DNA from: Gammaproteobacteria bacterium
Lineage (GTDB): Bacteria > Pseudomonadota > Gammaproteobacteria > Eutrophobiales > Eutrophobiaceae
DNA length: 64,000 nt
Assembly (NCBI GenBank): GCA_965248145.1
Contig: OZ252091.1
Coordinates: 3,047,222-3,111,221, forward strand
Direction: 5' to 3'
The notes beneath the pieces were generated by a model, which ran no database searches, was not told the origin of the DNA, and saw only the letters and a list, made by a program, of their open reading frames with translations. Positions 7,605-29,606 of the stretch are shown here, piece after piece (the first letter of the stretch is position 1; each line of letters opens with the position of its first letter). The position numbers were made by a program, and so were the translations under genes.

Positions 7605-7630
7605 TCAGATTAAGTTAGTTCTAGTAGGAT

Positions 7631-8017: not shown

Positions 8018-8021
8018 CTTG

Positions 8022-8095: not shown

Positions 8096-8102
8096 ATTAC
8101 TC

Positions 8103-8172
8103 ACAAAAAACAGCCGCGTTAGTGGCGGCTGTCGGGCCGTGGATCCTGTTAAGGATACCTACAGTGTGGTTG
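8103..8172. repeat. 70-bp direct repeat, copy 1 (contains the terminator hairpin); copy 2 at 13696-13766
   Basis: acaaaaaacagccgcgttagtggcggctgtcgggccgtggatcctgttaaggatacctacagtgtggttg compares with acaaaaaaacagccgcgttagtggcggctgtcgggccgtgggtcctgttaaggataccaacggtgtagttg. Confidence 0.85.
8105..8131 (-). terminator. Rho-independent terminator downstream of the 8252..9325 gene
   Basis: The minus strand reads cagccgccactaacgcggctg followed by tttttt, a 7-bp GC-rich stem with a T-run. Confidence 0.7.
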
Positions 8173-8251
8173 GCTGAAATATAGCACAAAATTATTTCTT
8201 GAAAATAAGAAATATCCAATTGATCACATTTGGTGGAATAGTCAACCTTCG

Positions 8252-9325: not shown

Positions 9326-9569
9326 TAAATGTTGAAAATATCATAAATAGTGAAAATATGATATAAAATCAGATAATTCATACAATCATCTATAAGTGAA
9401 TAAAATATAACTGATTGTTAGTATAGATATAATTAAGGTAATAACAAAGCAATTCCTTCATTTATCTCTAATTGATGGAATTATCCATATAATGGTGCAT
9501 ATTTTATATATTAATTGATATAATTAAATTGACGTCAAACTTATTACTATCGTCCGACAATAATCAAAT
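9326..9569. promoter_or_regulatory. AT-rich divergent control region between the AbiEi-like gene and the STAND gene
   Basis: 244 bp, strongly AT-rich. It contains the dyad tgaaaatatcataaatagtgaaaatatgatat (atatcat / atgatat arms) and several TATAAT-like hexamers. No promoter was mapped. Confidence 0.35.
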
Positions 9570-13640: not shown

Positions 13641-13695
13641 TTCAGTATCTCCCAGCTCAAGCAAGGAGTAAACATAAGGAATAAAATTATTCGCT

Positions 13696-13766
13696 ACAAA
13701 AAAACAGCCGCGTTAGTGGCGGCTGTCGGGCCGTGGGTCCTGTTAAGGATACCAACGGTGTAGTTG
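13696..13766. repeat. 70-bp direct repeat, copy 2 (terminator-type hairpin with no minus-strand gene to terminate)
   Basis: See 8103-8172. Confidence 0.85.
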
Positions 13767-13890
13767 ACCAAATTATATGAAAAAATAAAATTTTGTCAAA
13801 CAAGTTTTTTACTTCAACTTAATTTAATAACCGAAAATCCTGGCATCAAACGTGTCTGGTGTCGAAACAAGGATTAGAATCTACTAAAAA

Positions 13891-14508
13891 ATGAAAAAAG
13901 CAATGGTATATATTGATGGGTTTAACCTGTACTACGGTATTCGGAGTCTGAATAAGCCCAATCTCAAGTGGCTAAACGTGCAAAAATTGGCTGAAAGTTT
14001 CCTGCATAAGGGTACTCAATTGGTACAGGTTAAATACTTTACAGCCATGCTCAACGGAAATGTCGAAAAATCTAATCGCCAAAAGCACTATCTCAAGGCA
14101 TTAAAGGAACATACTACTCATTTAACCATAGTCAAAGGGCACTTTTTGATAAAGGGTTTTAACTGCCGAAAATGCAATTATCACAATGAAACTTTTGAAG
14201 AAAAGCAATCGGACGTTAATCTTTCTTGCGAATTATTAGCGGATACTTATGAAGATTGCTTCGATATTGCTTTTGTTGTTAGCGGCGATAGTGATTTGGC
14301 AACGCCAGTATCGAAAGCAGTTACTAAAGGTAAATCTGTTATAGTTGCCAACCCGCCGAACAGGAAAAGCCAGGCCCTCTTAAGAGCAGCAAGTAACGGA
14401 TTCAGCATTAATCTAAGACGCTTAAGGTCCTGTACACTTCCTCAACAATTCACGACCGAAAATGGTAGCTTCACAATGCCGGAAGAATGGCAGGTAAAAG
14501 TGAAATAG
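13891..14508 (+). CDS. NYN-domain (LabA/PIN-like) putative ribonuclease with an inserted CxxC pair
   Basis: MVYIDGFNLYYG at the N-terminus, EKQSDVNL and VVSGDSDLATPV are the conserved acidic motifs of NYN domains. CRKCNYHNETFEE lies between them. Confidence 0.75.
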   Translation: MKKAMVYIDGFNLYYGIRSLNKPNLKWLNVQKLAESFLHKGTQLVQVKYFTAMLNGNVEKSNRQKHYLKALKEHTTHLTIVKGHFLIKGFNCRKCNYHNETFEEKQSDVNLSCELLADTYEDCFDIAFVVSGDSDLATPVSKAVTKGKSVIVANPPNRKSQALLRAASNGFSINLRRLRSCTLPQQFTTENGSFTMPEEWQVKVK

Positions 14509-14577
14509 CAATTCAAAAACACGGCATACCCATCGCATACACTAATGCGATAGGTATTTAAACTATCTTCGGCTCCT

Positions 14578-15305
14578 TTACGTCATCACCATCGTTTCCG
14601 TATCACCAGCCGCCAGTGCGTTCATGTATGCCAGGATAAGGTCTTTAGTGCGATAACGACCAAACTTGGCTTCATCTTCCTTGCGGACGATAGGAAAAGT
14701 ATCAAGTACGTAACTCGCATCTTCCCTGGTCAAGCCGTAAAGGTGGAAATACAATGCATCAAGTCGGGCGCGTAGGTGACGGCGCTCCTCTTCGTCCCAA
14801 GTAAACGGTGGGTTGTCGTATCCGAGATCGCGGGCGAAGGGTTCCATGTCATGGGAGGTATAGGTAAGACGTAACACATGATCGCAAATAAGTTTACTGG
14901 CACTCTTGTCACCGAAGGTCCTATCATAATCGCCGGGTTTGATGACAGGAAGTTGCTCAAGCAAGTACAAAGTAAAATTATTACCAGGCACCTTTTGTCG
15001 AGCAACAAAATCGAACAAGAAAGTGTTTAAGTTCGCTACTATTAAACAGCCAGTTCGTGGTGTGTTGCCTAAGTCCTCTGATATTGTTAGGAGGTTTAAA
15101 GAATGCCCGGCACCGACTTTCGGTAATATGGCGGCTATCATCGTTCTTATGTTGGTTGTAGCCGTAACATTTTTGAAAGCAATAATCCAATCGTAATTTG
15201 AAACCCATTTTGTATCATTGAGTTGCACAAAATATCTTGATAGTGGTAAACGATTAAAATTCTGTTTTTCCGTTGTTGGAATAGTTTCTTGTTGACCACC
15301 CCCTC
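14578..15305 (-). pseudogene. C-terminal fragment of the type IIG restriction-modification gene cut by the IS3-family element
   Basis: The reading frame of ORF 14578..15228 stays open upstream to the IS boundary (GGGQQETIPTTEKQNFNRLPLSRYFVQLNDTKW...). It continues the theme of the N-terminal fragment, which ends ...FDHRAADTTINQENLFRPG. Confidence 0.75.
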
Positions 15306-15372
15306 TGTCAGGATAGTTGTCGCCTCACTTGAGTTATTATAAACAAAGTTAGAGGGCGATAGAGAGAACAAG

Positions 15373-15870
15373 ATGTCACATTATTCAGCAGAACGAAAAG
15401 AGGCCGTAATGCAGCAGATGATGCCGCCGCATAATATGCCGATACCGCGGTTAGCAGAGGAGACGGGCATCTCAGATGTCACGTTGTACAGTTGGCGCAA
15501 ACAAGCCAGGGTCGAGGGGATTGCCGTGCCAGCCGCTGGAAAGAATCCGGAGGAGTGGTCATCACAAGACAAGTTTGCCATTGTTCTGGAAGCGGCCTCG
15601 TTGAATGAGGCTGAACTGGCCGAGTACTGTCGCAAGAAGGGCCTGTACGTTGAGCAGGTCGCGTCCTGGCGGAAAGCCTGTCTACAGGCCAATGCCAGTA
15701 GCGCCGCCCAGGCCAAAATCCAACGAGAACAAACAAAGCAAGATCGTCAACAGATCAAGCAACTGGCAGGTGAACTGCGGCGTAAGGAAAAAGCGCTGGC
15801 CGAAGCGGCTGCCCTACTGCTTCTCCAAAAAAAAGCCCAGGCGACCTGGGGGGGAGGAGGGGACGAATGA
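15373..15870 (+). CDS. IS3-family transposase OrfA (HTH)
   Basis: PRLAEETGISDVTLYSWRKQ is the HTH, followed by a leucine-zipper-like C-terminus. Confidence 0.9.
   Translation: MSHYSAERKEAVMQQMMPPHNMPIPRLAEETGISDVTLYSWRKQARVEGIAVPAAGKNPEEWSSQDKFAIVLEAASLNEAELAEYCRKKGLYVEQVASWRKACLQANASSAAQAKIQREQTKQDRQQIKQLAGELRRKEKALAEAAALLLLQKKAQATWGGGGDE
15827..15835 (+). promoter_or_regulatory. Programmed -1 ribosomal frameshift slippery run (CAA AAA AAA G) for the OrfAB fusion
   Basis: An A8 run lies in the orfA frame. The -1 frame is open from here into orfB (PKKSPGDLGGRRGRMISHF...). Confidence 0.7.
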
Positions 15871-16919
15871 TCAGTCATTTCGATCGTCGTCATGCGGTCG
15901 AATTGATAGACGAAGCCGTGACAGCCGGCGCCCGACAACACCAGGCCTGCGCCATCCTGGAGCTCAGTGCTCGCACCTACCAACGTTGGACACAGGATGT
16001 GGCGGTACTAAGTGATGCTCGTCCCAGTGCTGAACGACCGGTACCGTCCAACAAACTCAGTGTCGAGGAACGACAGGTCATCCTTGCGCTGAGTAACAGC
16101 CCGACATTCCGTAGTCTGCCACCGAGTCAGATTGTGCCCATCCTGGCCGATGAGGGACGTTATCTGGCTTCGGAGTCGACCTTCTACCGGGTCTTGCGGG
16201 AGGCAGAGCAGCAACACCACAGAGGTCGCAGTAAAGCACCACAACACAAGCCCTTGAGTACCCACTGTGCCAGCGGCCCCAATCAGGTGTGGTGTTGGGA
16301 TATCACCTGGCTGCCGGGACCGGTCCGTGGTCTGTTTTATTACCTCTACCTGGTCTTGGATCTCTACAGTCGCAAGATTGTGGCCTGGGAGGTTCATGAG
16401 AGTGAGGCCAGTGAGTTGGCCGCGCAACTGATTCACAAAGCGTGTCTGACGGAAGGTATTGTGGCACAACCGCTGGTATTGCACTCGGACAATGGTAGTC
16501 CCATGAAAGGAACCAGCATGCTGGAGACCCTGCGCTGGCTGGGTGTGACACCATCGTTCTCCCGACCGCGAGTCAGCAACGACAATGCCTATGCTGAATC
16601 AGTGTTCCGAACTTGCAAGTACCGACCGAACTATCCGGTGAACGGGTTTGCCAGCATCGATGAGGCCAGAGCATGGGTGTTGTCCTTTAGTCGTTGGTAT
16701 AACACGGAGCATAAACACAGCGGGTTGAAGTTCACAACACCAGAGCAGCGTCATACTGGTGTAGCGACAGCCATACTTGCGCATCGTAAACACCTATATA
16801 GAGAAGCAAGAGAGCATCACCCGAATCGATGGCGTGGTGATATCAGGAACTGGGAGTTACCAGAGAAAGTCTGGTTGAACCCGGAGAAAGAACAGCCCGA
16901 ATTAAATAAGGCTGCGTAG
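15867..16919 (+). CDS. IS3-family transposase OrfB (DDE/rve integrase core)
   Basis: WCWDITWLP, LVLHSDNGSPMKG and NAYAESVFRTCKYR. Confidence 0.9.
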   Translation: MISHFDRRHAVELIDEAVTAGARQHQACAILELSARTYQRWTQDVAVLSDARPSAERPVPSNKLSVEERQVILALSNSPTFRSLPPSQIVPILADEGRYLASESTFYRVLREAEQQHHRGRSKAPQHKPLSTHCASGPNQVWCWDITWLPGPVRGLFYYLYLVLDLYSRKIVAWEVHESEASELAAQLIHKACLTEGIVAQPLVLHSDNGSPMKGTSMLETLRWLGVTPSFSRPRVSNDNAYAESVFRTCKYRPNYPVNGFASIDEARAWVLSFSRWYNTEHKHSGLKFTTPEQRHTGVATAILAHRKHLYREAREHHPNRWRGDIRNWELPEKVWLNPEKEQPELNKAA

Positions 16920-16943
16920 GCTCGGGCGACAACTATGTTGACA

Positions 16944-19900
16944 AACACCGACCAGGCCGAAACAGATTCTCCTGATTTATTGTTGTATCAGCAGCGCGGT
17001 GATCAAATGCCTGTACCATCTTACCTTCGTAGAGCGGCACCCATTTCTCCGTTGGACTATTGAAACAATTACCGCCGATAGGATACGCACCTTCATCTTC
17101 TTCAAGTACCTCGCGTGTGCGAAACAGATGTGAGTCATTGGCCATGTGAAACATATTCATGTACTTCACTGGCCACGCCTTCTTTTCCTGACCTGATGAC
17201 TTGTCAACCAGAACAGGATGTCCTTCATAAATGCGGCGGGTTATGTCGGCATCACGACGAGAACGAAAGACCGGAGCAGTGCCGGTATTAGGGTTCACAC
17301 GAACGAAATCTACAGGCGACAGGGGGAAACAGCGATCCGGGTCATTGATTGTGCTTGTGCCGTCAAGAAAAAAACCACACCGGGTCTCTACGAAAGTTCG
17401 CTCTTCACCGCCGAATATCAGGGCACAGAATTTGAAACTCCGATGCACATCCGGGAAAAATGGTGGCAGGTCGGTCCCAACACGGCCGTTCTCGAAGTCG
17501 AACAAACCTGCAATTTGCCCACTCGTTGAAACTGATTTGAAAAACTGGGCCGCAGTCTTATCTGCATAAATTCCTGACGGTGTAAGCAGTCCAACCAAAC
17601 CGTCGGGTTTGAGCAGATTCATCGCCTTCTCTACAAACAACGAGTAGAGGTTGATGTCGCCTCCGCCCAACAGAGGATAATGATCGGATTTGCGAATCAT
17701 TTCACTCAGTTCATCTGCTCGCGTTTTGGCCGTACCGAATTCGTCGGCCAACGGATTGCCCTGTTCGCTTAACCTCTTTATTGCATTTTTTCGCTGTGCG
17801 GCGGTCGGGAGGCGAGCAATATCGGGAGCGCGAGTTGCAAACCACTCTACTTCTTGCAGCTTGATTCGGTCCCAGGGCGGATTACCGATTATGGCGTCGA
17901 ATCCACCTTCAGATTGTTGATCCTGCCACCGTTTCCAAACGCCTGGGAAAGCAACTTGCCAATGCAGGAAGCCTTCTCGCCTTGCTATGGAAACAGCTTT
18001 ATTCCATAGCATACCAAAAGGGGTAGTTTTTTCCTGCGCACTGCCGGGACCGCGAGAAAGTAACTGGTAAGCGTTATCGGGATCGGCTTCCAATACCTGA
18101 TTAAGAGGAAGCTCAATTTTCGTTCGCTCAGACTTACTCAAACCGGCCGTCAACCAACGTAAACCGCATACAAAATCAAGAAATCCGCGTAGTACGGACG
18201 TAGTCTCTTCAACGCCGCAGAACAGATCAATCGACTGCTGCACCTCTGATATGTCGGTATCCGACATCTCCTCAATAAGTTGCATACCGGTGGCCGCGTT
18301 TTCAGCACCCTGGATCGCACTGGATACAAACAGAGCGCCAAGTCGATACAGTTCTTCGTTGGAGTCTTTTATTCGGAGACCGAGTAATGAGTCGCCACAA
18401 CGCAGGTGGTGGTCCAGGAATGACAGTGGGGCGCCGACAGTAAAACTGTGTAGCCATAAAGATACTTTTGCCAGTTCCACCGTCAGGGGATTCTTGTCCA
18501 CGCCGTAGATACAACGTTTGAGTACCATACGCCGGATAATGGCCTGGTCGGTAAACTGCGCTTCGTCAACCACCCAGCCAGACTCGGTGGCCCGGTTCAG
18601 AATATCTGTCCGGATCGCGTCTATTCGTTCAACGAGGGGCGATACATACTCACCGTTAAGCCATTCCGGCACAACTGGTACATACTCGATCAGGTTAACA
18701 ATATTGTCAGACAGAAAATCCACCGCAGTGACGAGAAAATGACCGCTGCCCATAGCCGGGTCCAGAACTTTCAGATTCAATACCGCTACTGCCGGATCCA
18801 GTTTGGAGAGTTCGATATGTCGTTCAGCTTTAGGACGACGGTCGCTTTTGAGGGCTTCCGACTTCTTCTCAAACTCCCGCAGGCGATCCTCTGCAAGCGG
18901 CTTAAGTGTCTGCTCCACAATCAGGTCAACCAGTTCCTGCGGTGTGTAGAAGCTGCCGCTGTCCTTGCGCGCATACGGATTGGGACGCACAGACACGCTG
19001 CCGTCTTCTGCGCGTACCGGTTCGCGTTCCAGCAACCTTTCATAGAGCGAGCCCAATTGTTGTACTGACATATCCCGATAATTGACGAAGTGGTGTTCAC
19101 CTGCGCTTTCAGAATGGCTCAGATCATGGATAATATCGGCGATTACCGCATCCGACAGACGTACATTCTCAAGGAGTGGAGCGGCTGTGGACGCGAACAG
19201 ACCGCCGTTGTAGGGAGGTAAGCCGATCGACGCGTCACCCTTATCTATAAGCCTGAAAAGTTCCAACAGGCGATTGTAGTAGTTGGCCGCCGTCACGGAA
19301 AAAACATCATCCTGCGCCTTCCGTTGCGCAATGTCGTCCCGTACACGCTTACGCAGGCCGTAATCATCATAGCGAAGGTCATTAACGGGTAGCAGGCCAC
19401 GGTCCTCGGCATACAGGATGAATAACAACCTGTAAAGGAAGATCAACGCGGCAGCGCGAACCTCTGGCAGGCTCGCTCCGGCAGTGTTTGCAAGCGCTTC
19501 AACGACCTTGGGAAACACATGGTCAAAGACTACGCTAGAAAGGTCCTGGGTAACCTTTTCTTCGTAGCGCCGGCCTTCCGCGAGGGCAGCTTCCAGGAAA
19601 GTAGTTGTTGCTCCCTGTTGGAGTACAAACGCATCCCGACGAAATAAGAGGAAAAACGTTCTCAGCCCGTCTTTATCTCCCTCATTCAGGAGTGTCTGAA
19701 GACCAATTTCGAAAAAGCCGTTGGCGCGCGGTCGGGCACGCTGGTCGTAGAGTCGCCACACACTACCGTTGGTAAGGATACCCCACCGAATATTGCCCTC
19801 CGAAACAATTTCAGCGGTTGACAGGTAGCGCAATATCTGCCCATGGGGCGTACCCTCTTGTACCTTGTCGCCCTCTTCCCGGCTGTCGAGAGATCGGTCG

Positions 19901-20265
19901 AACCGCTTGCTTTCCTGTACCAACAGCGCGTCCTTGTAACGATCTTTTGAATTACTGCGGGCAATAGCCCGCTTCTTCGAGTCGGCGTCCATAAATAGCA
20001 GGTGGTCGGGAATGTCTTCGTTGCGCGCCGCGCCCTGTTGCGGCAGGTATTCGCTCCATCCCAGCAACTCCAGAACCGGACGAATAAGATCTTGCTCCGT
20101 CACCGCCTCATTAGGGGCGCTGAACTGACTGAACTTGTTGAAGCGGGCGCGGATGGCATTGACAAAGACAGCAAACGTCTCCGGTCGTCTCACCGACTCC
20201 CGCCACTCATCGGTTGCCCGAATCCCGTCGGTCAGGAAGTATTGTTTGAACAACTGAGCAGACAT
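16944..20265 (-). pseudogene. N-terminal ~1100 codons of a type IIG restriction enzyme/N6-adenine methyltransferase (PD-ExK nuclease plus gamma-class MTase), truncated by IS insertion
   Basis: Nuclease-like motifs are IPDHLLF ... ALLVQESKRF. MTase motif I is VLDPAMGSGHFLV and motif IV is IIGNPPWDR. The ORF runs into the IS end (the last residues CLST are IS-encoded). Confidence 0.8.
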
Positions 20266-20282
20266 ATCAACCTCTTTCCAAC

Positions 20283-20368
20283 CCTAAATTGTTAAAATTG
20301 GTTCAATACGGGCTACGCAAATCTCCAAAAACTCGAAGATTTCTAAGAGAACTCGCTCACTATTGACA
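20283..20368 (+). pseudogene. Relic of the 3' end of a paralog of the 128-aa candidate toxin (7631..8017)
   Basis: It translates to LLKLVQYGLRKSPKTRRFLRELAHY*. Compare LLKRVQNGLHKSPQTRRFLKEVDI* at the end of 7631..8017. Confidence 0.75.
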
Positions 20369-20471
20369 AAGGATCACTACTACTGGCTTTTATCAGCTAC
20401 TGATAGTCTATCAGTTTGATATTGCCGGGTGAACTCACTTAATGAAACAACCATATAATACCGACCAACTG

Positions 20472-20606
20472 CCTGCGGAAGCAGGAATCCAGTCAAACCA
20501 ACTTTCCTTATTATTTATAAGGAATAAGTTGTCCACTGGATTCCCGCTTGCGCGGGAATAGCAGGGAAAGTTTGTCCACTGGATTCGGGCTTGCGCGGGA
20601 ATAGCG
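20472..20606. repeat. REP family E cluster (GC hairpin followed by aatccagt), three units
   Basis: Units are cctgcggaagcaggaatccagt, gtccactggattcccgcttgcgcgggaatagc and gtccactggattcgggcttgcgcgggaatagc. Related units lie at 22181-22205 and 58265-58293. Confidence 0.8.
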
Positions 20607-20654
20607 GGTTGTTTACCCGTCAAAATAATATTGACATACTACCAGGGCAGGAGT

Positions 20655-20731
20655 TGGCGCGGCTGACAAGATTCGAACTTGTGACCTCGACCTTCGCAGG
20701 GTCGCGCTCTGCTCCGCTGAGCTACAGCCGC
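20655..20731 (-). tRNA. tRNA-Arg (anticodon GCG)
   Basis: Manual cloverleaf: gcggctg ta gctc agcggagca gagc g cgacc ctGCGaa ggtcg aggtc acaag ttcgaat cttgt cagccgc g cca. Confidence 0.75.
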
Positions 20732-20734
20732 AAA

Positions 20735-20808
20735 TGGTCCGCCCTGAGAGATTCGAACTCCCGTCTTCCGGTTAAAAGCCGGATGCACGGCCACTATGCC
20801 AAGGACGG
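20735..20808 (-). tRNA. tRNA-Lys (anticodon TTT)
   Basis: ccgtcct tg gcat agtggcc gtgc a tccgg ctTTTaa ccgga agac gggag ttcgaat ctctc agggcgg a cca. It has a short variable loop and G-U pairs. Confidence 0.7.
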
Positions 20809-20812
20809 AGTA

Positions 20813-20889
20813 TGGCCTGCCCGGAGAGATTCGAACTCCCGACCTGCTGGTTAGAAGCCAGCTGCTCTGCTCCGCTGAGCTACGGGCAG
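20813..20889 (-). tRNA. tRNA-Arg (anticodon TCT)
   Basis: ctgcccg ta gctc agcggagca gagc a gctgg ctTCTaa ccagc aggtc gggag ttcgaat ctctc cgggcag g cca. Confidence 0.85.
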
Positions 20890-20893
20890 TCAT

Positions 20894-20981
20894 TGGCGGA
20901 GAAGCCGGGATTCGAACCCGGGTGGGCGCGTTGCCCTCTCGTTTAGCAAACGAGCGCCTTAAGCCACTCGGCCACTTCTCC
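20894..20981 (-). tRNA. tRNA-Ser (anticodon GCT), long variable arm
   Basis: ggagaag tg gcc gagtggcttaa ggc g ctcgt ttGCTaa acgag agggcaacgcgcccac ccggg ttcgaat cccgg cttctcc g cca. Confidence 0.85.
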
Positions 20982-20990
20982 ATCGAAATA

Positions 20991-21066
20991 TGGGGTGACC
21001 CACCGGATTCGAACCGGCATCTCCCAGGATCACAACCTGGTGCTTTACCGTTAAGCTAGGGTCAAC
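20991..21066 (-). tRNA. tRNA-His (anticodon GTG) with encoded G-1
   Basis: g ttgaccc ... ccagg ttGTGat cctgg ... ccgg ttcgaat ccgg t gggtcac c cca. An extra 5' G pairs with C73, as expected for bacterial tRNA-His. Confidence 0.8.
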
Positions 21067-21077
21067 ATATCTGTGTT

Positions 21078-21165
21078 TGGCGGAGACTGAGAGGATCGAA
21101 CTCCCACGTCCGTCAGGACATCACCGGGTTCAAGCCGGATAAGCACGCCAGCCTTGCGAGTCTCC
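21078..21165 (-). tRNA. tRNA-Ser-like (anticodon TGA), long variable arm, irregular D arm and anticodon stem
   Basis: ggagact cg caaggctggcgtgctta tccgg ctTGAac ccggt gatgtcctgacggacgt gggag ttcgatc ctctc agtctcc g cca. Position 8 is C, there is a 27-43 mismatch and the D stem is weak. Confidence 0.55.
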
Positions 21166-21211
21166 ATATTCGGCAGCAGACAACAGGTCCCTGTCCGCAC
21201 ACCACATATTT

Positions 21212-21289
21212 TGGTCTGGGAGGCCGGATTCGAACCGGCGACCTCTCGGGTCCAAGCCGAGGGCTCTGGCCAGGCTGAGCTACTCCCAG
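21212..21289 (-). tRNA. tRNA-Pro (anticodon TGG)
   Basis: ctgggag ta gctc agcctggcca gagc c ctcgg ctTGGac ccgag aggtc gccgg ttcgaat ccggc ctcccag a cca. The C1-G72 pair is typical of bacterial tRNA-Pro. Confidence 0.85.
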
Positions 21290-21297
21290 ACAACGTC

Positions 21298-21376
21298 TGG
21301 TAGACCGGGGCCGATTCGAACGGCCGTCCTCGCGATTATGAGCCGCGCGCTCTGTACCTGACTGAGCTACCGGTCT
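21298..21376 (-). tRNA. tRNA with CAT anticodon (elongator Met or lysidine-modified Ile2)
   Basis: agaccgg ta gctc agtcaggtaca gagc g cgcgg ctCATaa tcgcg aggac ggccg ttcgaat cggcc ccggtct a cca. It is not initiator-like. C4 and C5 in the acceptor resemble Ile2 determinants, but this is undecidable by eye. Confidence 0.8.
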
Positions 21377-21385
21377 GGTTTAAAC

Positions 21386-21461
21386 TGGTGATCCGGACAG
21401 GATTCGAACCTGCAATTACGAGATTGAAAGTCTCGTGGCTTCACCATTCGCCCACCGGATC
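21386..21461 (-). tRNA. tRNA-Glu (anticodon TTC)
   Basis: gatccgg tg ggcgaatggtgaagcc a cgaga ctTTCaa tctcg taatt gcagg ttcgaat cctgt ccggatc a cca. Confidence 0.75.
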
Positions 21462-21489
21462 AAACGAAATTGAATGTCCCTCCATCATC

Positions 21490-21565
21490 TGGAGCTGGCG
21501 GTGAGTCTCGAACTCACAATCTGCTGTTTACAAGACAGCTGCCCTGCCGATTGAGCTACGCCAGC
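21490..21565 (-). tRNA. tRNA-Thr (anticodon TGT)
   Basis: gctggcg ta gctc aatcggca gggc a gctgt ctTGTaa acagc agatt gtgag ttcgaga ctcac cgccagc t cca. Confidence 0.85.
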
Positions 21566-22025
21566 GAAATAAACGGCAGCGGCCGCCTGCGCCAGGCGCG
21601 CCGTTGCCCACAATTTGTTAAAGAGCGTCGCCGGGGCAAAAAAAAGCCCCGGTCGATTTAAACCAACCAGGGCTGTTGTCAGAGGTGTCGTCTGGAAGGT
21701 TTGTTGTCGCGCCTTCCAGCAGGATTGTCTCAGGAAGGCTTAACGCATCGGCTCGTGTTTATCGTTACTAAAGCGGGATGAAGCCGTGCGTCTGTCGGCC
21801 GTATGTATGGCGTTGGCGCGCGTCGACGCGGCGCCGGCAACGGCCGGTTCCGAATAACTGTGGCGTGTCATGATGATGATTACGTTCATAGTGCGGCGGA
21901 GTATATATACCCCGATGCGATTGTCAAGAGGTTTGTTCAAATTCAATATATTACAGGGCGAACGTATGCTTTTGAAGCTGCCCCCTGTCATTCCCACGTC
22001 TCATGCAGCTATTCCTGCGCAAGCA

Positions 22026-22109
22026 GAGTAGTGGCACAGGGATGTGCCGTTTACGGACCAAAGGACGGAGTAGTGGCACAGGGATGTGCCGTTTACGGAC
22101 CAAAGGACG
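22026..22109. repeat. Perfect tandem duplication of a 42-bp unit
   Basis: gagtagtggcacagggatgtgccgtttacggaccaaaggacg occurs twice. Each unit contains the hairpin ggcaca-ggga-tgtgcc. Confidence 0.9.
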
Positions 22110-22131
22110 GAAATCCAGTGAAACAAAGAGT

Positions 22132-22205
22132 CGCCCCCTGCTTACGACATGCTGGGGCAGGCTTCGGCGACACGTTATTAACTGGATTCCCGCTTGCGCG
22201 GGTAT
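22132..22205. repeat. REP family G unit followed by a REP family E unit
   Basis: See 6503-6548 and 20472-20606. Confidence 0.75.
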
Positions 22206-22222
22206 GGTAGTGAATCTGAAAT

Positions 22223-23515: not shown

Positions 23516-24130
23516 TTACTGCAGCCTGATATCCGATTTGCTGGCATCAAACTCTATCTCCATACTGATCAGGTTTGATTTGATTAATTCCATCCGCTGT
23601 GCCGCGCTATCCATTTCCAGTATTTCCTGTTTGACTTTTTTATCAAAGGGCAAGAATTCCGCAAGACGATAACTGAGTGTCTTTGCACTGATGGAAGCAT
23701 GGTCTTCATTCGAGTACAAAGTCTCATAATTCTCTACGATATGCAGGTAAATATCCTGGAGCAGTTGGTGTTCCTTCACGCTTTCGATTTCGTCCGTCTC
23801 AGTTACCCAGTCAATATCCCCCTCAAGTAAATTATTGCTCCGAACCGACGTTTGTAAAACGCGGAATCTTCTTCTCCCCTGAACGGTAATGGTCAACAAT
23901 CCATCTGCCTGGTGTGAAAAATCAATAACATCCGCGTAAGTCCCCATATTGAAACACGTTGCCGCCACCCCTGTTTCATTTCCCTGTTTTATAAGGCTAA
24001 CTCCAAACCCGGCATCTGTCTTCAGCCGTTCACTCACCATATCCACGTAACGGGGTTCGAATATCCGCAACGGCAGGATCCCTTGCGGGTACAAAACTGT
24101 GTGCAGTGGAAACAAGGGGATATTTTGCAT
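23516..24130 (-). CDS. LON substrate-binding (Lon N-terminal) domain protein
   Basis: IPLFPLHTVLYPQGILPLRIFEPRYVDMV is the typical LON-N start. Confidence 0.8.
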   Translation of the reverse strand: MQNIPLFPLHTVLYPQGILPLRIFEPRYVDMVSERLKTDAGFGVSLIKQGNETGVAATCFNMGTYADVIDFSHQADGLLTITVQGRRRFRVLQTSVRSNNLLEGDIDWVTETDEIESVKEHQLLQDIYLHIVENYETLYSNEDHASISAKTLSYRLAEFLPFDKKVKQEILEMDSAAQRMELIKSNLISMEIEFDASKSDIRLQ

Positions 24131-25485
24131 CAGTCAGACAACCTCTCAATTAACCGTTGGTGAATTTTTTCAAACCCGCCATTACTCATAATCACGATAT
24201 GATCATACCGCATTCTGGTGCTGTCCAGTTGAGTCACAATATCTTCCACGCTATCAAACATATGCAACTTATTGCCCAGCCCGCTGAGAGCGGCGCGCAG
24301 GTCCCAGTCAAGTCCCGGGGGTTCATATACACAAACCAGGTCCGCCGCGGTCAGGGACTCGGCAAGGGCTTCTTTGTGTATTCCTGATTTCATTGTATTC
24401 GAGCGTAACTCCAGCACGGCAATGATGCGCCGCTCGCCGGTCCGACTTCTTAACGCCTGCAGTGAACGGGTAATAGCCGTAGGATGATGGGCAAAATCAT
24501 CATAAATCGACACATTATCAACTGTCGCCAGTAATTGTAAACGCCGCTTCACATTTTTAAAACCGGATAAACTCTCACAGGCCCGGTGCGGTGAAATACC
24601 AACCCGGTATGCCGCAATTATCGCCGCCAGGGCATTTTCGGCGTTATGCTCGCCAAATAATGACCACTGCACACTTCCCACGTCCCTGCCCTCTTTAATG
24701 ACCTGAAATCCCGAATAGTCCCGGCTTGACGCCATGGTTTGCCAGGTGGAAGATGCCTCACCAAACCGGATTACCGGTGACCAGTTTCCCATCTCCAAAA
24801 CCGTATCGATATGCGGATTTCCTGCTCTGGCAATAATTTGACCGTTGGCGGGAACGGTTCTTACGAGATGATGGAACTGCCTGTGAATCGCCTGTATGTC
24901 ATCGAAAATATCGGCATGATCATATTCGATATTATTGATGATTAATACATCGGGGTGATAGTGGATGAACTTTGCCCGTTTATCGAAAAAAGCCGTGTCA
25001 TATTCATCGGCTTCTACCACAAATAAACCTGAATTGCCGAGTTCCGCGGAGTGCCCGAAATTTTCCGGAACGCCGCCGATCAAAAACCCGGGGTCTTTTC
25101 CCGCGGCGTGCAATATCCAGGCAAGTATGCTTGAGGTGGTGGTTTTGCCATGAGTGCCGGAAACTGCCAGTACCTCGCGCCCCGGCAGAATATTCTCAGC
25201 CAGCCATTGCGGCCCGGAGATACAGGGTATTTTCTCCGACAGTACGTACTCTACGCTCTTGTTGCCCCGGGACAGGACATTACCCACGATGACCAGGTCC
25301 GGCCTGGGGTCAAGCCATGCCGGTTCATAACCCTTATTGACCTCAACACCCAACCCGGCCAGTTCATCACTCATGGGCGGATAAATATGTTGGTCGCTCC
25401 CGGCAACCTGGTGCCCAAGTTGTTGCGCCAGCCGGGCGATGCCTCCCATGAAAGTGCCGCAGATTCCCAATATGTGCAGCTTCAC
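24130..25485 (-). CDS. mpl: UDP-N-acetylmuramate:L-alanyl-gamma-D-glutamyl-meso-diaminopimelate ligase
   Basis: A GTG start at 25485 gives (M)KLHILGICGTFMGGIARLAQQLGHQVAGSD. The P-loop is VSGTHGKTTTSS. Length is ~451 aa. The 543-aa ORF in the track is an upstream read-through. Confidence 0.9.
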   Translation of the reverse strand: MKLHILGICGTFMGGIARLAQQLGHQVAGSDQHIYPPMSDELAGLGVEVNKGYEPAWLDPRPDLVIVGNVLSRGNKSVEYVLSEKIPCISGPQWLAENILPGREVLAVSGTHGKTTTSSILAWILHAAGKDPGFLIGGVPENFGHSAELGNSGLFVVEADEYDTAFFDKRAKFIHYHPDVLIINNIEYDHADIFDDIQAIHRQFHHLVRTVPANGQIIARAGNPHIDTVLEMGNWSPVIRFGEASSTWQTMASSRDYSGFQVIKEGRDVGSVQWSLFGEHNAENALAAIIAAYRVGISPHRACESLSGFKNVKRRLQLLATVDNVSIYDDFAHHPTAITRSLQALRSRTGERRIIAVLELRSNTMKSGIHKEALAESLTAADLVCVYEPPGLDWDLRAALSGLGNKLHMFDSVEDIVTQLDSTRMRYDHIVIMSNGGFEKIHQRLIERLSD

Positions 25486-26047
25486 TGAACCGGATAAAGA
25501 AAGGTGAATTCGATTAATACCCCCATCAACATATATGTTATCGAGACGAATACCCCGACAACAAACGAGGACGAAATGGCATGTCTGAAAATATGTGCCA
25601 TCACGACTACGTACCAGATAATTATGACGTAAAGGAGTAAGTAGAAGATTTGTTCCATGGATGTCATCGGGTTGGAATCGGGCAGGGTAAGGACAAGGGG
25701 AATGAGCAATACACCGAATAATATCCCGGTTCCTGCCAACGCCGTTACAGTCTGGCTCCACCGGTTCGCTTTACGGCACAGCAATAGCAGTAAATAAACA
25801 AATACCAGTAAAAACGCAGTATCAACCAATCCTGCCAATAACGTATTCGTTACCGTCTTATCCAATGCGGCCAACAGCAAATTAAGCAGGAGATAAATGC
25901 CGACGGTGAGCGTCAACAATTCCCGGGAAGCAGGAATGTCCTGGGGCTGGCGCTTCAATAGACACATATAAGAAAACATCTTGGTGAGTACTATTGCATC
26001 AGCATACATGCTAACAGTTTATATGAAAACAGCAGGGGTTGTATCGG
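25319..26047. repeat. 729-bp direct duplication, copy 1 (mpl 5' end plus the membrane-protein gene)
   Basis: Aligns with 28741-29469 at a constant offset of 3422 nt. I found only 3 substitutions. Confidence 0.9.
25482..26009 (-). CDS. Polytopic membrane protein, unknown function (copy 1)
   Basis: 175 aa with about 5 hydrophobic helices. A near-identical second copy lies at 28904..29431. Confidence 0.6.
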   Translation of the reverse strand: MYADAIVLTKMFSYMCLLKRQPQDIPASRELLTLTVGIYLLLNLLLAALDKTVTNTLLAGLVDTAFLLVFVYLLLLLCRKANRWSQTVTALAGTGILFGVLLIPLVLTLPDSNPMTSMEQIFYLLLYVIIIWYVVVMAHIFRHAISSSFVVGVFVSITYMLMGVLIEFTFLYPVQ

Positions 26048-26076
26048 GATAACCGATATTCAACCAGGATAAGCTC

Positions 26077-26157
26077 TTGACATTATACGGACATAACCTA
26101 TTATGTTACTTGTCCAGTCAGACATATAATCCTCTTATATACTGTATATGGATATAG
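26077..26157 (+). promoter_or_regulatory. Putative sigma-70 promoter(s) and a LexA-box-like dyad upstream of the 65-aa ORF
   Basis: TTGACA (26077-82), 16 nt, then TATTAT (26099-104). A perfect TATAAT lies at 26125-30. ctgtatatggatatag (26142-57) matches CTGT-N8-ACAG except for one base. AAGGAG lies 7 nt before the ATG. Confidence 0.35.
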
Positions 26158-26234
26158 TTAATCACAGTGACATAATAAGCAGGAGGGCTTTATTTTTGGT
26201 CCCACCTGGCTCAACTACAAAAGGAGATAATTGA

Positions 26235-26432
26235 ATGAGCAGCACTGCATTATACAAAGCATTGACTGAAGCAGGCGCATCCGAAGGCAGCGCTACCGCC
26301 GCCGCGGACGGCGTGATTACTCACCTGCAGCGGATTGAAATAAATATCGCCGAACTGAAGATTACAAACCGAGTAATATTGAGCTTGGTCTTCGCGATGT
26401 TTCTGGTGGTCTTGAAACCCTTCATCTGGTAA
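26235..26432 (+). CDS. Small protein with a DUF1640-like N-terminus and a C-terminal transmembrane helix
   Basis: 65 aa: ALYKALTEAGASEGSATAAADGV...ELKITNRVILSLVFAMFLVVLKPFIW. It has a strong Shine-Dalgarno sequence. Confidence 0.5.
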   Translation: MSSTALYKALTEAGASEGSATAAADGVITHLQRIEINIAELKITNRVILSLVFAMFLVVLKPFIW

Positions 26433-26561
26433 CCATAGCCAACTCGACAAGTTGTCCCCCACCCCTTGGTAAGTGGTTTCCCGACAAGGGTGCAGCGGCT
26501 GTTTTGGTGTATAGACGCAGGCTAGTGTCTATACAAACGCCGGGAACCGGCACAAGATGGC

Positions 26562-28642
26562 CTAGCCCAAGTTTAACACCCATATTTATAAGTTCTTATT
26601 ATTCAATCAGTTAGAATTGATAAATTCGGCGTCTGGCACTACAAAGTGCCTTTTATCCGTCGTTTAACCTATTACACGACCGTCTTCTGCGTGCCGCCGG
26701 GGTTCTCGTCCAGGCCTAACGCCGCATAGAGGGCCTGCTGTTGCGCCTCCGGGCGCGTGGCTTTACGGATATGCAGGGTACGTTGGTCGGCACAACGGAA
26801 GGTAGCGGTCACCCGCTGCTGTCCCCCCAGGATACGGCGCAACGTCGTCCAGCTGGCCGTCTCCCCGTGCGCCCGCAGACGGCGACGGATGAACTGCACG
26901 GCCTGATAGGCCAGTACGGTGATGAACAGGTGCCCCTCGGCGCGCGTCGGTGTCTGGTGAAACACCGGACGCAGCCCCAACTCCGATTTGAGTGCGCGGA
27001 ACACGGCCTCCAGATCGGTCAGCAGGGTATAGGTGCGCCAGAGCTTTTCCGCATCCCAGTCGGTGAGATTACTGCGCAGGCAATACACGCCCGGATGCGT
27101 CAGCAGGGAGCCGCTATGGGGCCGGCATTGCCAGCTGAGGGACGCGGCCTGCTTGCCGCTGGCATCCGCGGTGACGTCAACAACATAATGTTGGGCAATA
27201 CCGCGGCTTTGTTCGCGCAGCCGACCGATGCGTTGGTGGATACTGTTCAAACTCTTGCGCGTGCGGGGCCGCGACAAGCCGTCGGCCAGGCGTTGCAGCC
27301 CGGTCTCGAAACGCTGTTGCAGGCGTGCCGCGATGCCTTTCTCTTTCTCGGCCCGGGCCGCCGAATAACAGTACAGGCGGGCCTCGCCCTCGTTCTGTTC
27401 CAGGGACAGTTGCACCGGCTGCCCGGAGGCGGTGTCTATCGTTATGGCCTGCTCCAGGTCGAACTGTCGGTGGCGGGCACGGCTCACCACCAGGTAACGG
27501 TAGCCCTGTTCACGCAGCCAGGCGATGTTGGCCTCGGTCGCTATCCCCCGGTCCAGCACCACCAGCGCCGCCGCCGGCGCGCCCAGCGCCGTCAGCATGT
27601 CTGCCAATGTGCTGTCTTCCCGCACATTGCCGGCAAACACCTGCGAACGGCGCACAAAGCCGCTGCCGTCCAGTACCAGACCCAACGTCAGCAACGGACA
27701 GTCACTGCGTTTCTCCTTCGAGTGTCCCCGGCGCGCCTTCGGTTGTACCCCGGCCTCACCCTCAAAATAGGTGTTGGTCAGGTCGTACAGCGTCACGGGG
27801 GGGGACAGGTCGAATAAATCACTCACCTGCCGGAACAGGTGGTGTTCGAGGTCGTCCCGGTGCGCCAGCAAGACATCCGAGGCGCGATACAGTTGCATGG
27901 CGCTCATCGCTTCAAAGTCCACCCCCAGCAACTCGCCCAGGGCGCTGCGTTGACCCAGCCAGGCATGGGTGGCGCGTTCCGACCCCGGCGCCGCCAGGCG
28001 CCCGATAATCGATCCCAGCGCCGCCGCCTGTTGCGGTCCGGTCAACCCCAGCCGTGCCAGTAACACCGGCACGCCCAGTTGTTGCAGTGCCCACAGGCCC
28101 ACCGCTTCCACCCCCACCGCGCGCGGCCGCAGCAGCGCCAGCGAAGCGGCGACCACACTGTGTACGTCCTCGGCCGGGGAGGCCGCCGCGGCCGGCGCCG
28201 GGGCGCGGGCCAGCAGTTGCGCGGCGATGCGTTGCGCTTCGGTTTCCAGCGCCGCCGGACAATCCGGATCCAGCAGCTCGGTCTGGCCGGACAGCAAGTG
28301 TTCGATGCGGGCACATAACGTCGGCCACTGCGTCCGCTCGATGGCGTAGTGGCTGCCGAGGTTGAGCAGGGTGCGTTGGCGGACTTTCTCCCCCACGCGT
28401 TCGGCGCGCACCAGGCGGTAGGTGAAATAATCCTGACCGGTGTCGGTGCGACGGGTACGGGTGCGACGGATAAACATGGGGGACAGGATAGCGTGTCGGA
28501 AGGGGGCTGTCAAGAAGAAATATCACTTTATGGCACTACATTCATAAAATCCCTCATCCAACTATGAAAAATCAATTACTTAGAGGTGACTACAAGCGAA
28601 AATCAGCCAAAATTCGGGGTTCGAGTGTTAAACTTGGGCTAG
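26562..28642 (-). mobile_element. IS1634-family (IS4 superfamily) insertion sequence, 2081 bp, GC-rich relative to its surroundings
   Basis: 18-bp perfect terminal inverted repeats: ctagcccaagtttaacac (26562-79) and gtgttaaacttgggctag (28625-42). There is a single long transposase ORF. Confidence 0.85.
26672..28513 (-). CDS. IS1634-family DDE transposase
   Basis: The likely start is MFIRRTRTRRTDTGQDYFTYRLVRAERVGEKVRQRTLLNLG at 28477, the N-terminal pattern I associate with IS1634-type transposases. About 600 aa. Confidence 0.8.
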   Translation of the reverse strand: MTAPFRHAILSPMFIRRTRTRRTDTGQDYFTYRLVRAERVGEKVRQRTLLNLGSHYAIERTQWPTLCARIEHLLSGQTELLDPDCPAALETEAQRIAAQLLARAPAPAAAASPAEDVHSVVAASLALLRPRAVGVEAVGLWALQQLGVPVLLARLGLTGPQQAAALGSIIGRLAAPGSERATHAWLGQRSALGELLGVDFEAMSAMQLYRASDVLLAHRDDLEHHLFRQVSDLFDLSPPVTLYDLTNTYFEGEAGVQPKARRGHSKEKRSDCPLLTLGLVLDGSGFVRRSQVFAGNVREDSTLADMLTALGAPAAALVVLDRGIATEANIAWLREQGYRYLVVSRARHRQFDLEQAITIDTASGQPVQLSLEQNEGEARLYCYSAARAEKEKGIAARLQQRFETGLQRLADGLSRPRTRKSLNSIHQRIGRLREQSRGIAQHYVVDVTADASGKQAASLSWQCRPHSGSLLTHPGVYCLRSNLTDWDAEKLWRTYTLLTDLEAVFRALKSELGLRPVFHQTPTRAEGHLFITVLAYQAVQFIRRRLRAHGETASWTTLRRILGGQQRVTATFRCADQRTLHIRKATRPEAQQQALYAALGLDENPGGTQKTVV

Positions 28643-28740
28643 CTCATGGAGCAAAAAACAGCCTCGAGACTCTTCCTATGAGGGCCTTACTGTAAAGGCA
28701 GCGCTGCTTTACTATTTTCGACTCGAGCGAGAATCGTCTC

Positions 28741-28907
28741 GCCGGTTCATAACCCTTATTGACCTCAACACCCAACCCGGCCAGTTCATCACTCATGGGC
28801 GGATAAATATGTTGGTCGCTCCCGGCAACCTGGTGCCCAAGTTGTTGCGCCAGCCGGGCGATGCCTCCCATGAAAGTGCCGCAGATTCCCAATATGTGCA
28901 GCTTCAC
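28741..28907 (-). pseudogene. Truncated duplicate of the mpl 5' end (first ~55 codons)
   Basis: Identical to mpl codons 1-55. It then reads into unrelated sequence (…EPARRFSLESKIV…). Confidence 0.85.
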
Positions 28908-29431
28908 TGAACCGGATAAAGAAAGGTGAATTCGATTAATACCCCTATCAACATATATGTTATCGAGACGAATACCCCGACAACAAACGAGGACGAAATG
29001 GCATGTCTGAAAATATGTGCCATCACGACTACGTACCAGATAATTATGACGTAAAGGAGTAAGTAGAAGATTTGTTCCATGGATGTCATCGGGTTGGAAT
29101 CGGGCAGGGTAAGGACAAGGGGAATGAGCAATACACCGAATAATATCCCGGTTCCTGCCAACGCCGTTACAGTCTGGCTCCACCGGTTCGCTTTACGGCA
29201 CAGCAATAGCAGTAAATAAACAAATACCAGTAAAAACGCAGTATCAACCAATCCTGCCAATAACGTATTCGTTACCGTCTTATCCAATGCGGCCAACAGC
29301 AAATTAAGCAGGAGATAAATGCCGACGGTGAGCGTCAACAATTCCCGGGAAGCAGGAATGTCCTGGGGCTGGCGCTTCAATAGACACATATAAGAAAACA
29401 TCTTGGTGAGTACTATTGCATCAGCATACAT
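28904..29431 (-). CDS. Polytopic membrane protein, unknown function (copy 2)
   Basis: 175 aa with one substitution (M to I) relative to 25482..26009. Confidence 0.6.
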   Translation of the reverse strand: MYADAIVLTKMFSYMCLLKRQPQDIPASRELLTLTVGIYLLLNLLLAALDKTVTNTLLAGLVDTAFLLVFVYLLLLLCRKANRWSQTVTALAGTGILFGVLLIPLVLTLPDSNPMTSMEQIFYLLLYVIIIWYVVVMAHIFRHAISSSFVVGVFVSITYMLIGVLIEFTFLYPVQ

Positions 29432-29606
29432 GCCAACAGTTTATATGAAAACAGCAGGGTTTGTATCGGACAAGTGGCTATGTGATACCATAAATTTTTC
29501 CTATTACAGTTATTAAATATTAAAATTATCACCATCCTCAATATTGCGCTATGCTGTGTTTTGACCTGATGAGTTAATCAAACACGTTACTGAACAGGAG
29601 GAAAAA

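Follow-up and report, generated by a model that had tools for sequence, protein, structure and literature searches.

A ten-gene tRNA array at a variable nth-mutS locus of uncultured Gammaproteobacteria is probably an accessory cassette with gated expression

A 64,000-nucleotide stretch of a gammaproteobacterial chromosome (hereafter the window) carries, at positions 20655 to 21565 of its minus strand and beside nth, a compact array of ten tRNA genes preceded by a promoter, a conserved leader and a strong terminator. Comparison with related genomes and metagenome loci indicates that this array is probably a dispensable, rearranging accessory cassette of supernumerary tRNA genes with gated expression, located at an nth-mutS hotspot in uncultured, host-associated (sponge-type) Gammaproteobacteria. 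The sequencing runs that hold the window are host-associated, and related sequences were found in sponge and marine metagenomes.

The accessory character of the array is most evident from its distribution. The nth protein was scanned against one genome per species, and its nearest relatives were uncultured Gammaproteobacteria with nth at 83 to 86% amino acid identity. Four of the five closest species-level genomes (L002 to L005) have neither a tRNA gene nor the leader within 10 kb of nth; in these array-less relatives nth abuts the PP2C-mutS block, and the gap is 130 bp in L003. Because PP2C-mutS starts 130 bp after nth in L003, positions 5385 to 22222 of the window represent a variable insert of about 16.8 kb between the conserved PP2C-mutS block and nth, the tRNA module included. 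The array is present in L001, L159, L160, and L166, a sporadic distribution of the type described for long tRNA arrays (PMC8421152), and genomes with and without it are interleaved by mutS and nth divergence. Neither its presence nor its position is kept among relatives as in a core operon. The preliminary description of this DNA, made from the sequence alone, had proposed accessory cargo rather than an ordinary core operon, and this proposal is supported by the absence of the array from four of the five closest relatives and by its variable subsets and positions elsewhere.

Further members of the family were found through a metagenome scan, a leader-open reading frame (ORF) search, and a search with a 128-residue protein encoded in the insert. 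Seven array compositions of 4 to 10 genes were recovered, all of them at the nth-mutS hotspot where the flanks are known. The window array reads Thr-Glu-Met-Pro-Ser-His-Ser-Arg-Lys-Arg; L001 has Met-Pro-Ser-Arg-Lys-Arg beside nth, six of the window's ten genes in the same order; L095 and L110 have Phe-Asn-Asp-Glu-Met-Pro-Ser-Arg-Lys-Arg, L159 has Met-Pro-Arg-Lys-Arg, L160 and L161 have Phe-Asn-Glu-Lys-Arg, and L166 to L170 have Phe-Glu-Met-Lys. The only member common to all seven compositions is tRNA-Lys(UUU). The window and its relatives have two blocks in common, Glu to Ser-TGA and Arg-TCT to Arg-GCG, whereas no related locus contains tRNA-Thr or the pair of His and Ser-GCT. The position of the array varies as well: in L095 it lies between the Panacea gene and an AbiEi/AbiEii-like pair, whereas in the window it lies beside nth, the Panacea and AbiE genes are mutually adjacent, and the tRNA module is 13 kb away from them.

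The same units of change are visible among strains that co-occur in the source samples, where contigs skip exactly the 171-bp Thr block or a 185-bp block with His and Ser-GCT. The 171-bp insert (21465 to 21635) follows the terminator, contains a boxA-like element, a hairpin, and tRNA-Thr, and is absent from all related loci; it is carried by the dominant population of the source samples, while some contigs jump from 21464 directly to 21636. Membership of the cassette shifts by the gain and loss of single tRNA genes, and the leader travels along. Since genes for single-isoacceptor tRNAs are missing from some arrays, each genome must encode its His, Glu, Lys, Phe, Asn, and Asp tRNAs elsewhere, and the array copies are therefore probably supernumerary, apparently duplicating housekeeping isoacceptors. 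The depth of the window tRNA genes in the source samples equals that of their flanks, which indicates a single-copy array that has become fixed in the dominant population. A comparison of the source runs with the canonical Ser-TGA of a related locus returned hundreds of contigs from a complex microbiome that are not assignable to one genome.

The gene content of the array agrees with the preliminary description in each of its particulars. ARAGORN finds exactly ten tRNA genes in the 911 bp, all on the minus strand, with spacers of 3 to 46 nt (in rising coordinates 3, 4, 4, 9, 12, 46, 8, 9, and 28 nt) and a density of 11 genes per kb. The ten anticodons are distinct, none is repeated, and their set and transcription order are those reported earlier: Thr-TGT (21490 to 21565), Glu-TTC (21386 to 21461), a CAT tRNA (21298 to 21376), Pro-TGG (21212 to 21289), Ser-TGA (21078 to 21165), His-GTG (20991 to 21065, with an encoded G-1 at 21066), Ser-GCT (20894 to 20981), Arg-TCT (20813 to 20889), Lys-TTT (20735 to 20808), and Arg-GCG (20655 to 20731). 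CCA is encoded in every gene, as seen from TGG at the plus-strand start of all ten. Nine genes score 56 to 70 bits with the Rfam tRNA model (gathering score 29); the class II Ser-TGA remains under the Rfam cut-offs (33 bits to tRNA-Sec) and has a cloverleaf with a normal long arm and G73. In tRNA-His the encoded G-1 faces C73, and U1 and C72 are mismatched. The anticodon loop of Lys-TTT is the ordinary CUUUUAA, U34 occurs in six of the ten anticodons, and the tRNA with CAT carries C4-G69 and C5-G68 and may be Ile2. The array tRNAs are structurally sound.

Comparison between loci bears on whether the tRNAs are functional. Shared tRNAs are 95 to 100% identical across genomes, and the flanking core genes 74 to 83%. 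The anticodon-stem pair G28-C42 of tRNA-Glu is replaced by C28-G42, a compensatory change, and a T-stem G.U pair of tRNA-Lys is replaced by G-C; these compensatory stem changes argue for structural selection on the array tRNAs. In tRNA-Pro(TGG) of L001, L095, and L159, position 33 is C, and the window copy has the near-universal U33. The array tRNAs are 64 to 74% identical to their Escherichia coli counterparts, and Arg-GCG is 81% identical to E. coli Arg-CCG.

The Arg-GCG gene deserves separate mention. CGY codons are normally decoded in bacteria by Arg-ACG edited to ICG, and Arg-GCG is not a standard bacterial anticodon. The exact Arg-GCG anticodon arm was found in about 100 metagenome loci, with at least 3 tRNA genes in 81 of them, at least 10 in 32, at least 20 in 9, and a maximum of 41; none of the 847 tRNAs in these loci is Arg-ACG. 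The long arrays among these metagenome loci (L059 to L158) have a recurrent order, ...His-Trp-Thr-Arg-Arg-Arg-Arg(GCG)-Cys, and encode Arg-GCG and Arg-TCG, never Arg-ACG, a set that provides decoding without a need for A-to-I editing by TadA. The shared Arg-GCG anticodon arm ties the cassette to horizontally spread long arrays (PMC4758250, PMC8421152). A derivation of all ten tRNAs from such arrays was considered and rejected: only Arg-GCG is close, and the other nine are 60 to 80% identical to same-anticodon long-array tRNAs, which is background level. A phage or plasmid origin was likewise rejected, because the best blastn matches in phage and plasmid collections reflect no more than the general likeness among tRNAs, at about 70%. 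Viral scans with the Arg-GCG arm and with the leader gave no matches; viral matches to the Lys and Thr anticodon arms proved to be unrelated tRNAs (at most 70% and 83% identical, respectively), the two matches to the Lys arm being 68 to 70% identical overall.

Upstream of the tRNA genes lies a promoter-leader-terminator module that the preliminary description did not mention. A block of about 290 bp (21638 to 21928) has 84 to 87% BLAST identity in L001, L095, and L110, and the alignment shows it conserved in L159 and L160 too. On the minus strand, the module begins with an A/T-rich tract (21930 to 21955) upstream of the -35 hexamer, for which relatives carry GAAAAATAATT and which, by analogy with rRNA and tRNA promoters, may serve as an UP element. 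It is followed by a sigma-70 promoter (21900 to 21927) that a promoter scan scored at 11 of 12 consensus matches, TTGACA and TATACT separated by 16 nt and succeeded by the discriminator CCGCCGC. No full-length homologue deviates in either hexamer, and an A-rich tract, near-consensus hexamers, and a GC-rich discriminator together are the architecture of rRNA and tRNA promoters. A conserved leader RNA of 255 nt then extends from the predicted start, an A at 21892, to the end of a T-run at 21638, with a mean column identity of 93% over six aligned homologues. It ends in an intrinsic terminator (21638 to 21674) predicted to comprise a 13-bp stem (T1, 21674 to 21663; T2, 21656 to 21645), a 4-nt loop, and U8, at -20.8 kcal/mol. 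An Rfam search with the leader found no family at gathering score, and weak NsiR1 and His_leader matches were driven by the terminator.

The leader was found only ahead of arrays, where it stands directly upstream whether the first gene is Thr, Met, or Phe. In five of the six other array compositions the same promoter, 255-nt leader, and terminator precede the array, and in the sixth only the last 74 nt do so: at 10816 to 11285 of L166 to L170 the leader is reduced to segment C (see below) and the terminator, and a RelB-type antitoxin gene replaces the promoter and the ORF. In the relatives the U-run ends within 8 nt of the first tRNA, which leaves the array without its own promoter and dependent on transcription through the terminator. 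The module thus reads as one transcription unit in which the tRNAs would be made only by transcription that passes the terminator, and we infer that tRNA expression is gated at this point. In the window, the 171-bp insert adds a boxA-like antitermination element, GCTCTTTAACAA (21615 to 21626, minus strand), the sole exact copy in the window, and a terminator-like GC-rich hairpin followed by GTTTATTTC (21575 to 21608, minus strand), which lies 9 nt upstream of tRNA-Thr and occurs in none of the related loci.

Within the leader, an ORF of 49 codons plus TAA (21740 to 21889, minus strand; MNVIIIMTRHSYSEPAVAGAA...DKHEPMR*) is called by gene callers (P0001/P0002), and all six homologues keep this frame open. 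It contains a 35-nt block, ACAGTTATTCGGAACCGGCCGTTGCCGGCGCCGCG (21827 to 21861, minus strand), which four of the six aligned leaders have without a change. The L160 copy differs in the hairpin loop alone (CGTT to CGAG, Val to Glu), and the L159 copy in one base at the stem foot (GCCGG to GCCGA, Gly to Asp); as these changes recode amino acids, the constraint on the block looks RNA-level. No regulatory codon run was found in the leader ORF. Seven of eight consecutive leader codons (TRHSYSEP) are read by array tRNAs, a post hoc observation. Three segments, all on the minus strand, follow the ORF: A, GCCUUCCUGA (GCCUUCC; 21730 to 21739), lies immediately 3' of the stop codon (21742 to 21740), is invariant and is complementary to B; B, CCUGCUGGAAGGCGC with the core CUGGAAGG (21709 to 21723), is invariant and can pair with A or C; and C, AACCUUCCAGACG (21689 to 21701), is near-identical to A and has two possible partners, B and the terminator's 5' arm, T1. 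That segment A, a non-coding stretch left unpaired by the consensus fold, is nonetheless invariant, and that both A and C are complementary to B, together suggest a switch.

Such a switch might operate as follows. From the strong rRNA/tRNA-type sigma-70 promoter, RNA polymerase would transcribe the conserved 255-nt leader, meet the strong terminator, and only then reach the tRNAs, and the nascent RNA could form four successive, mutually exclusive helices, A:B, B:C, C:T1, and T1:T2. When segment A is free, A:B would form, C would be available to sequester T1, and RNA polymerase would read through; a ribosome finishing the leader ORF would cover A, so that B:C and then the terminator would form. 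Predicted helix energies are -13 kcal/mol for A:B, -12 to -21 for B:C, -8 to -14.5 for C:T1, and -21 to -23 for T1:T2, which are comparable to those of classical attenuators, and the C:T1 helix is present in a minimum-free-energy fold. Impaired translation, caused for example by antibiotics, starvation, or the cleavage of tRNA by a defence or toxin system, would then leave the leader ORF unfinished and switch on the spare tRNAs, tRNA-Lys(UUU) always included, and with these the cell would be cushioned against toxins or defence systems that damage tRNA. The leader resembles an attenuator, a likeness that is unproven; a four-helix gate ahead of the tRNAs is the likeliest form of gate, as a hypothesis that we would not count as probable, and a ribosome-sensing attenuator that gates an accessory tRNA operon is a tentative proposal put forward with low confidence. 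A role against tRNA-targeting toxins is plausible, and a spare-tRNA role fits the island location, the universal presence of Lys-UUU, and the literature on phage tRNAs and mycobacterial arrays. Candidates for a tRNA-cleaving enzyme are the island's own NYN nuclease and two proteins of relatives, one an AbiEii-like nucleotidyltransferase and the other an OLD-like TOPRIM protein.

Several observations weigh against a gated cassette of spare tRNAs. A Shine-Dalgarno sequence is missing from the leader ORF, whose ATG is about 3 nt away from the predicted start of transcription and whose variable sites (13, 17, and 13 by codon position) show no coding-type constraint. In a thermodynamic simulation of ribosome masking, equilibrium folding forms the terminator in every simulated state, so that antitermination would have to be kinetic, and B:C is more stable than A:B in all homologues but the window's own leader. 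The few positions that covary are as compatible with B:C and T1:T2 as with C:T1; a covariation proof of the antiterminator was therefore abandoned, as six leaders at 93% mean column identity offer changes that fit both competing helices. The redundancy of the array tRNAs is deduced from the differing subsets of relatives rather than from a whole-genome tRNA count. In L166 to L170 the leader is cut to 74 nt and Arg-GCG is lost, which shows that the cassette can decay. PADLOC and Pfam scans found no known anticodon nuclease (PrrC, RloC, AriB, or Schlafen type) in the island. On the supporting side, evidence of expression comes from metatranscriptome contigs of related bacteria, which extend over the leader and over the genes Arg-TCT to Arg-GCG; one of them reaches past the terminator to the first tRNA, whereas leader contigs are otherwise separate from tRNA contigs, and the leader is deeper in one run. 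Because these are assembled contigs from related organisms, in which DNA carry-over is possible, this RNA support is weak.

How the array should be read also depends on how these data sit with other explanations. That it is an ordinary core tRNA operon, bordering an island only because tRNA genes are common integration sites, would agree with an array that is single-copy, fixed in the dominant population, and equal in depth to its flanks, and with the rRNA/tRNA-type promoter features and the boxA element; this account is nevertheless highly improbable and is largely refuted by synteny, since four of the five closest species lack the array at the locus, with nth abutting PP2C-mutS, and its composition and position vary. 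Moreover, neither an integrase nor an att-like copy of a tRNA 3' end was found at the island, on which grounds a tRNA gene as integration site was rejected, Arg-GCG is a non-standard bacterial anticodon, and the tRNA sequences are far from canonical gammaproteobacterial tRNAs. Codon-usage support, in which the tRNAs would read the A-ending and rare codons that the AT-richer island genes use more often, is in keeping with the frequency of U34, with a CAT tRNA that may be Ile2, with a GC content at third codon positions of 0.47 in island against 0.585 in core genes, and with an island richer in CCA (11.7 versus 3.5 per 1000 codons), ACA (14.2 versus 8.2), AGT, ATA, and AGA. However, these differences are modest, the codons read by the most constant members are not enriched (AAA for Lys-UUU, 30 versus 25.5 per 1000; CGY for Arg-GCG, unchanged), core genes also use AGA, ATA, and AAA freely, and a strong terminator ahead of the tRNAs would be an odd design for constitutive supply, so we consider codon support quite unlikely.

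Two further accounts were considered. The array could be a cryptic, decaying remnant of a horizontally acquired long array, silenced by its terminator and without current function: membership erodes from 10 to 4 genes, the leader is truncated in L166 to L170, three relatives have C33 instead of U33 in tRNA-Pro, the window tRNA-His has the U1.C72 mismatch, and long arrays are reported to be poorly transcribed (PMC8421152). Decay without function is hard to reconcile with compensatory stem changes, with tRNAs that are better conserved than the flanking core genes, with promoter hexamers and leader segments that are invariant in full-length homologues, with the new addition of Thr, His, and Ser-GCT in the window, and with RNA contigs for the leader and the tRNAs; a mere remnant is therefore unlikely, if slightly less so than codon support. 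A serious minority possibility is that the 255-nt element and its terminator form an independent gene for a small RNA or a small protein, and that the tRNAs arise by constitutive leak-through with no switch. The terminator is predicted in all states, the consensus fold requires only B:C and the terminator, and the separate leader RNA contigs, deeper in one run, would also be expected. On the other side, the leader occurs only ahead of arrays, the T-run ends no more than 8 nt before the first tRNA in relatives, segment A is invariant yet unused in the consensus fold and duplicates C as a partner of B, and a single RNA contig continues through the terminator to the first tRNA.

The accessory cassette, as we favor it, is embedded in a neighbourhood that was scanned with PADLOC and Pfam. 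Left of the insert are mutS (1608 to 4211) and a PP2C phosphatase gene, and right of it are nth, an rnfE-like gene, a gene with a Lon N domain, and mpl. The insert itself contains a duplicated 88-aa gene, a DUF5615/PIN-like gene, a Panacea-domain gene with a 128-aa partner, AbiEi, a 1356-aa PD-Lambda-4-like protein gene (E value of 1e-30), a HEC-09 NYN nuclease gene (E value of 4e-64), and a type IIG restriction-modification (RM) gene split by an IS3 element. The presence of the PD-Lambda-4-like protein, the NYN nuclease, AbiEi, the Panacea-domain antitoxin, and the RM gene upholds the earlier designation as a defence island. The array had also been said to separate the island from nth; it does lie between the type IIG RM gene and nth, but it belongs to the variable insert and is not its border.

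Repeats bracket the tRNA module on both flanks, as had been noted earlier for repetitive extragenic palindromic (REP) clusters: ACTGGATTCCCGCTTGCGCGGG occurs only four times in the 64 kb, at 20472 to 20493 (minus strand) and at 20535, 20578, and 22181 (plus strand), and every copy brackets the module. The downstream cluster (20472 to 20605) has one inverted and two direct copies and shows excess depth, and the upstream cluster (22026 to 22208, plus strand) consists of a perfect tandem duplication of the 42-nt unit GAGTAGTGGCACAGGGATGTGCCGTTTACGGACCAAAGGACG (22026 to 22109) and a stretch with a direct REP copy (22166 to 22208). The REP stretches have 5- to 100-fold excess depth in the source samples, and the stretch from 22082 to 22215, with up to about 100-fold, is therefore high-copy DNA. 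Excision of the array through REP recombination was considered and set aside, because inter-REP contig joints are anchored by only 20 to 30 nt and are most likely a product of the repeats in the assembly graph.

Other features of the insert and its surroundings were recorded. The type IIG RM gene (14578 to 20265) is interrupted by an IS3-family element (orfA, 15373 to 15870; orfB, 15867 to 16919), leaving a 1110-aa N-terminal piece (16933 to 20265, minus strand) and a 216-aa C-terminal piece (14578 to 15228, minus strand) that match consecutive parts of the same PADLOC profiles; in L160, L168, and L169 the gene is intact (1339 to 1343 aa). A "repeat" of about 380 bp at 5388 to 5764 and 6555 to 6935 is a minus-strand gene of about 88 codons with GGAGG and then ATG, whose product has no family match and which has a variable ATGGAAAACAGGAT-type repeat close to one end. 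Its copies flank the DUF5615/PIN-like cassette in the window and the tRNA module in L001 (10672 to 10981, 12647 to 13044), and may be a recombination substrate for cassette exchange. The 128-aa Panacea partner has homologues only in this lineage and no family match, and its AlphaFold model (pLDDT of 37) was unusable. In L095 (6460 to 8354) the tRNA module adjoins the AbiEi/AbiEii-like pair, identified by weak Pfam nucleotidyltransferase matches, and in L160 (7071 to 8867) it lies near a 598-aa protein with a weak OLD-like TOPRIM match; both families include members that act on tRNA. Outside the insert, a DDE_Tnp_1 transposase ORF (26672 to 28513, minus strand) lies in a region of 64.7% GC (26000 to 28750) that adjoins mpl, and about 0.7 kb of the mpl 5' region is doubled around it, 24130 to 26028 and 28742 to 29450 aligning to the same part of L001. 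A transfer-messenger RNA gene is located at 58459 to 58815, with the tag peptide ANFLVAEEDNYALAA.

Arrays of extra tRNA genes on mobile DNA are already known, but their function and the way in which they are prevented from upsetting the host's tRNA pool are largely open, and the only control mechanism studied to date is a repressed promoter in one cyanobacterium. The family described here offers a small, tractable case of 4 to 10 genes with natural variants in a defence hotspot, and its control differs and is unusually explicit: a strong stable-RNA promoter, then a switch-like leader and a terminator. If the switch does sense translation, it would connect the supply of tRNA directly with immunity and toxin systems that target tRNAs, offer a testable explanation of why tRNA-Lys(UUU), a favorite target of anticodon nucleases, is the member never lost, be the first attenuator known to control tRNA genes, and make the cassette a self-contained module of "tRNA repair by replacement" in defence islands. 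The attenuator-like control region, previously unremarked, is the part most worth experiment.

Among known systems, the leader-peptide attenuators of the trp, his, and thr operons and the ribosome-mediated ones of antibiotic-resistance genes share with this module a promoter, a short ORF, alternative, overlapping hairpins that are close in energy, and a U-run terminator before the genes, and His_leader of Rfam gives a weak sub-threshold match to the leader (27 bits, E value of 0.077). Classical attenuators, however, regulate biosynthetic enzymes rather than tRNAs and contain a regulatory codon run, whereas the leader here has neither a codon run nor a Shine-Dalgarno sequence; they also have four pairing segments instead of five, and with five segments the default state without a ribosome would be read-through. 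The leaders of rrn and tRNA operons resemble the module in an exact GCTCTTTAACAA boxA in leader position with a hairpin before it, and their promoters in the 16-bp spacer and GC-rich discriminator. The boxA is confined to the 171-bp insert of the window and, as it comes after the intrinsic terminator, cannot help polymerase past that point. Phage tRNA clusters are likewise compact sets of extra tRNAs including Lys-UUU beside defence genes, and phage tRNAs can replace those cut by the host, as with T5 tRNA-Lys against PARIS (PMC11464382) and with the arrays of mycobacteriophages (a 2023 eLife paper, as cited in PMC12803027). The idea of spare tRNAs that survive tRNA-targeting nucleases is applicable to phage clusters and the window array alike, but the latter is chromosomal, with no phage genes around it and no close phage or plasmid match.

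The closest likeness is to tRNA clusters and long arrays. Morgado and Vicente define a tRNA gene cluster as at least 10 tRNA genes at no fewer than 2 per kb (PMC6333295), and the ten genes of the window at 11 per kb fall within both limits. The array unit of Tran et al. requires at least 20 tRNA genes at a density of 2 or more per kb (PMC4758250), and by that definition the window with 10 genes and its relatives with 4 to 10 are too small. The L-arrays of Santamaria-Gomez et al. are non-periodic and contain up to 43 genes; long arrays reportedly come by horizontal acquisition, are supernumerary, stay silent by default, and are switched on by translational stress (PMC8421152). Like them, the window array is dense, one-stranded, non-periodic, composed of different isoacceptors (here ten different anticodons), sporadic, and accessory, and it shares the Arg-GCG anticodon arm that in metagenomes occurs almost only there; it is short by comparison, with 10 genes (4 to 10 in relatives) against 20 to 43, and may be a reduced derivative of an L-array. 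Our verdict is that the array is probably a reduced, fast-evolving variant of known mobile tRNA arrays. The long array of Anabaena is controlled by direct repeats that overlap its promoter (PMC8421152), whereas the window array has a leader and an intrinsic terminator in front; the output of the proposed gate, induction by impaired translation, would be the same as in Anabaena, reached by a different route.

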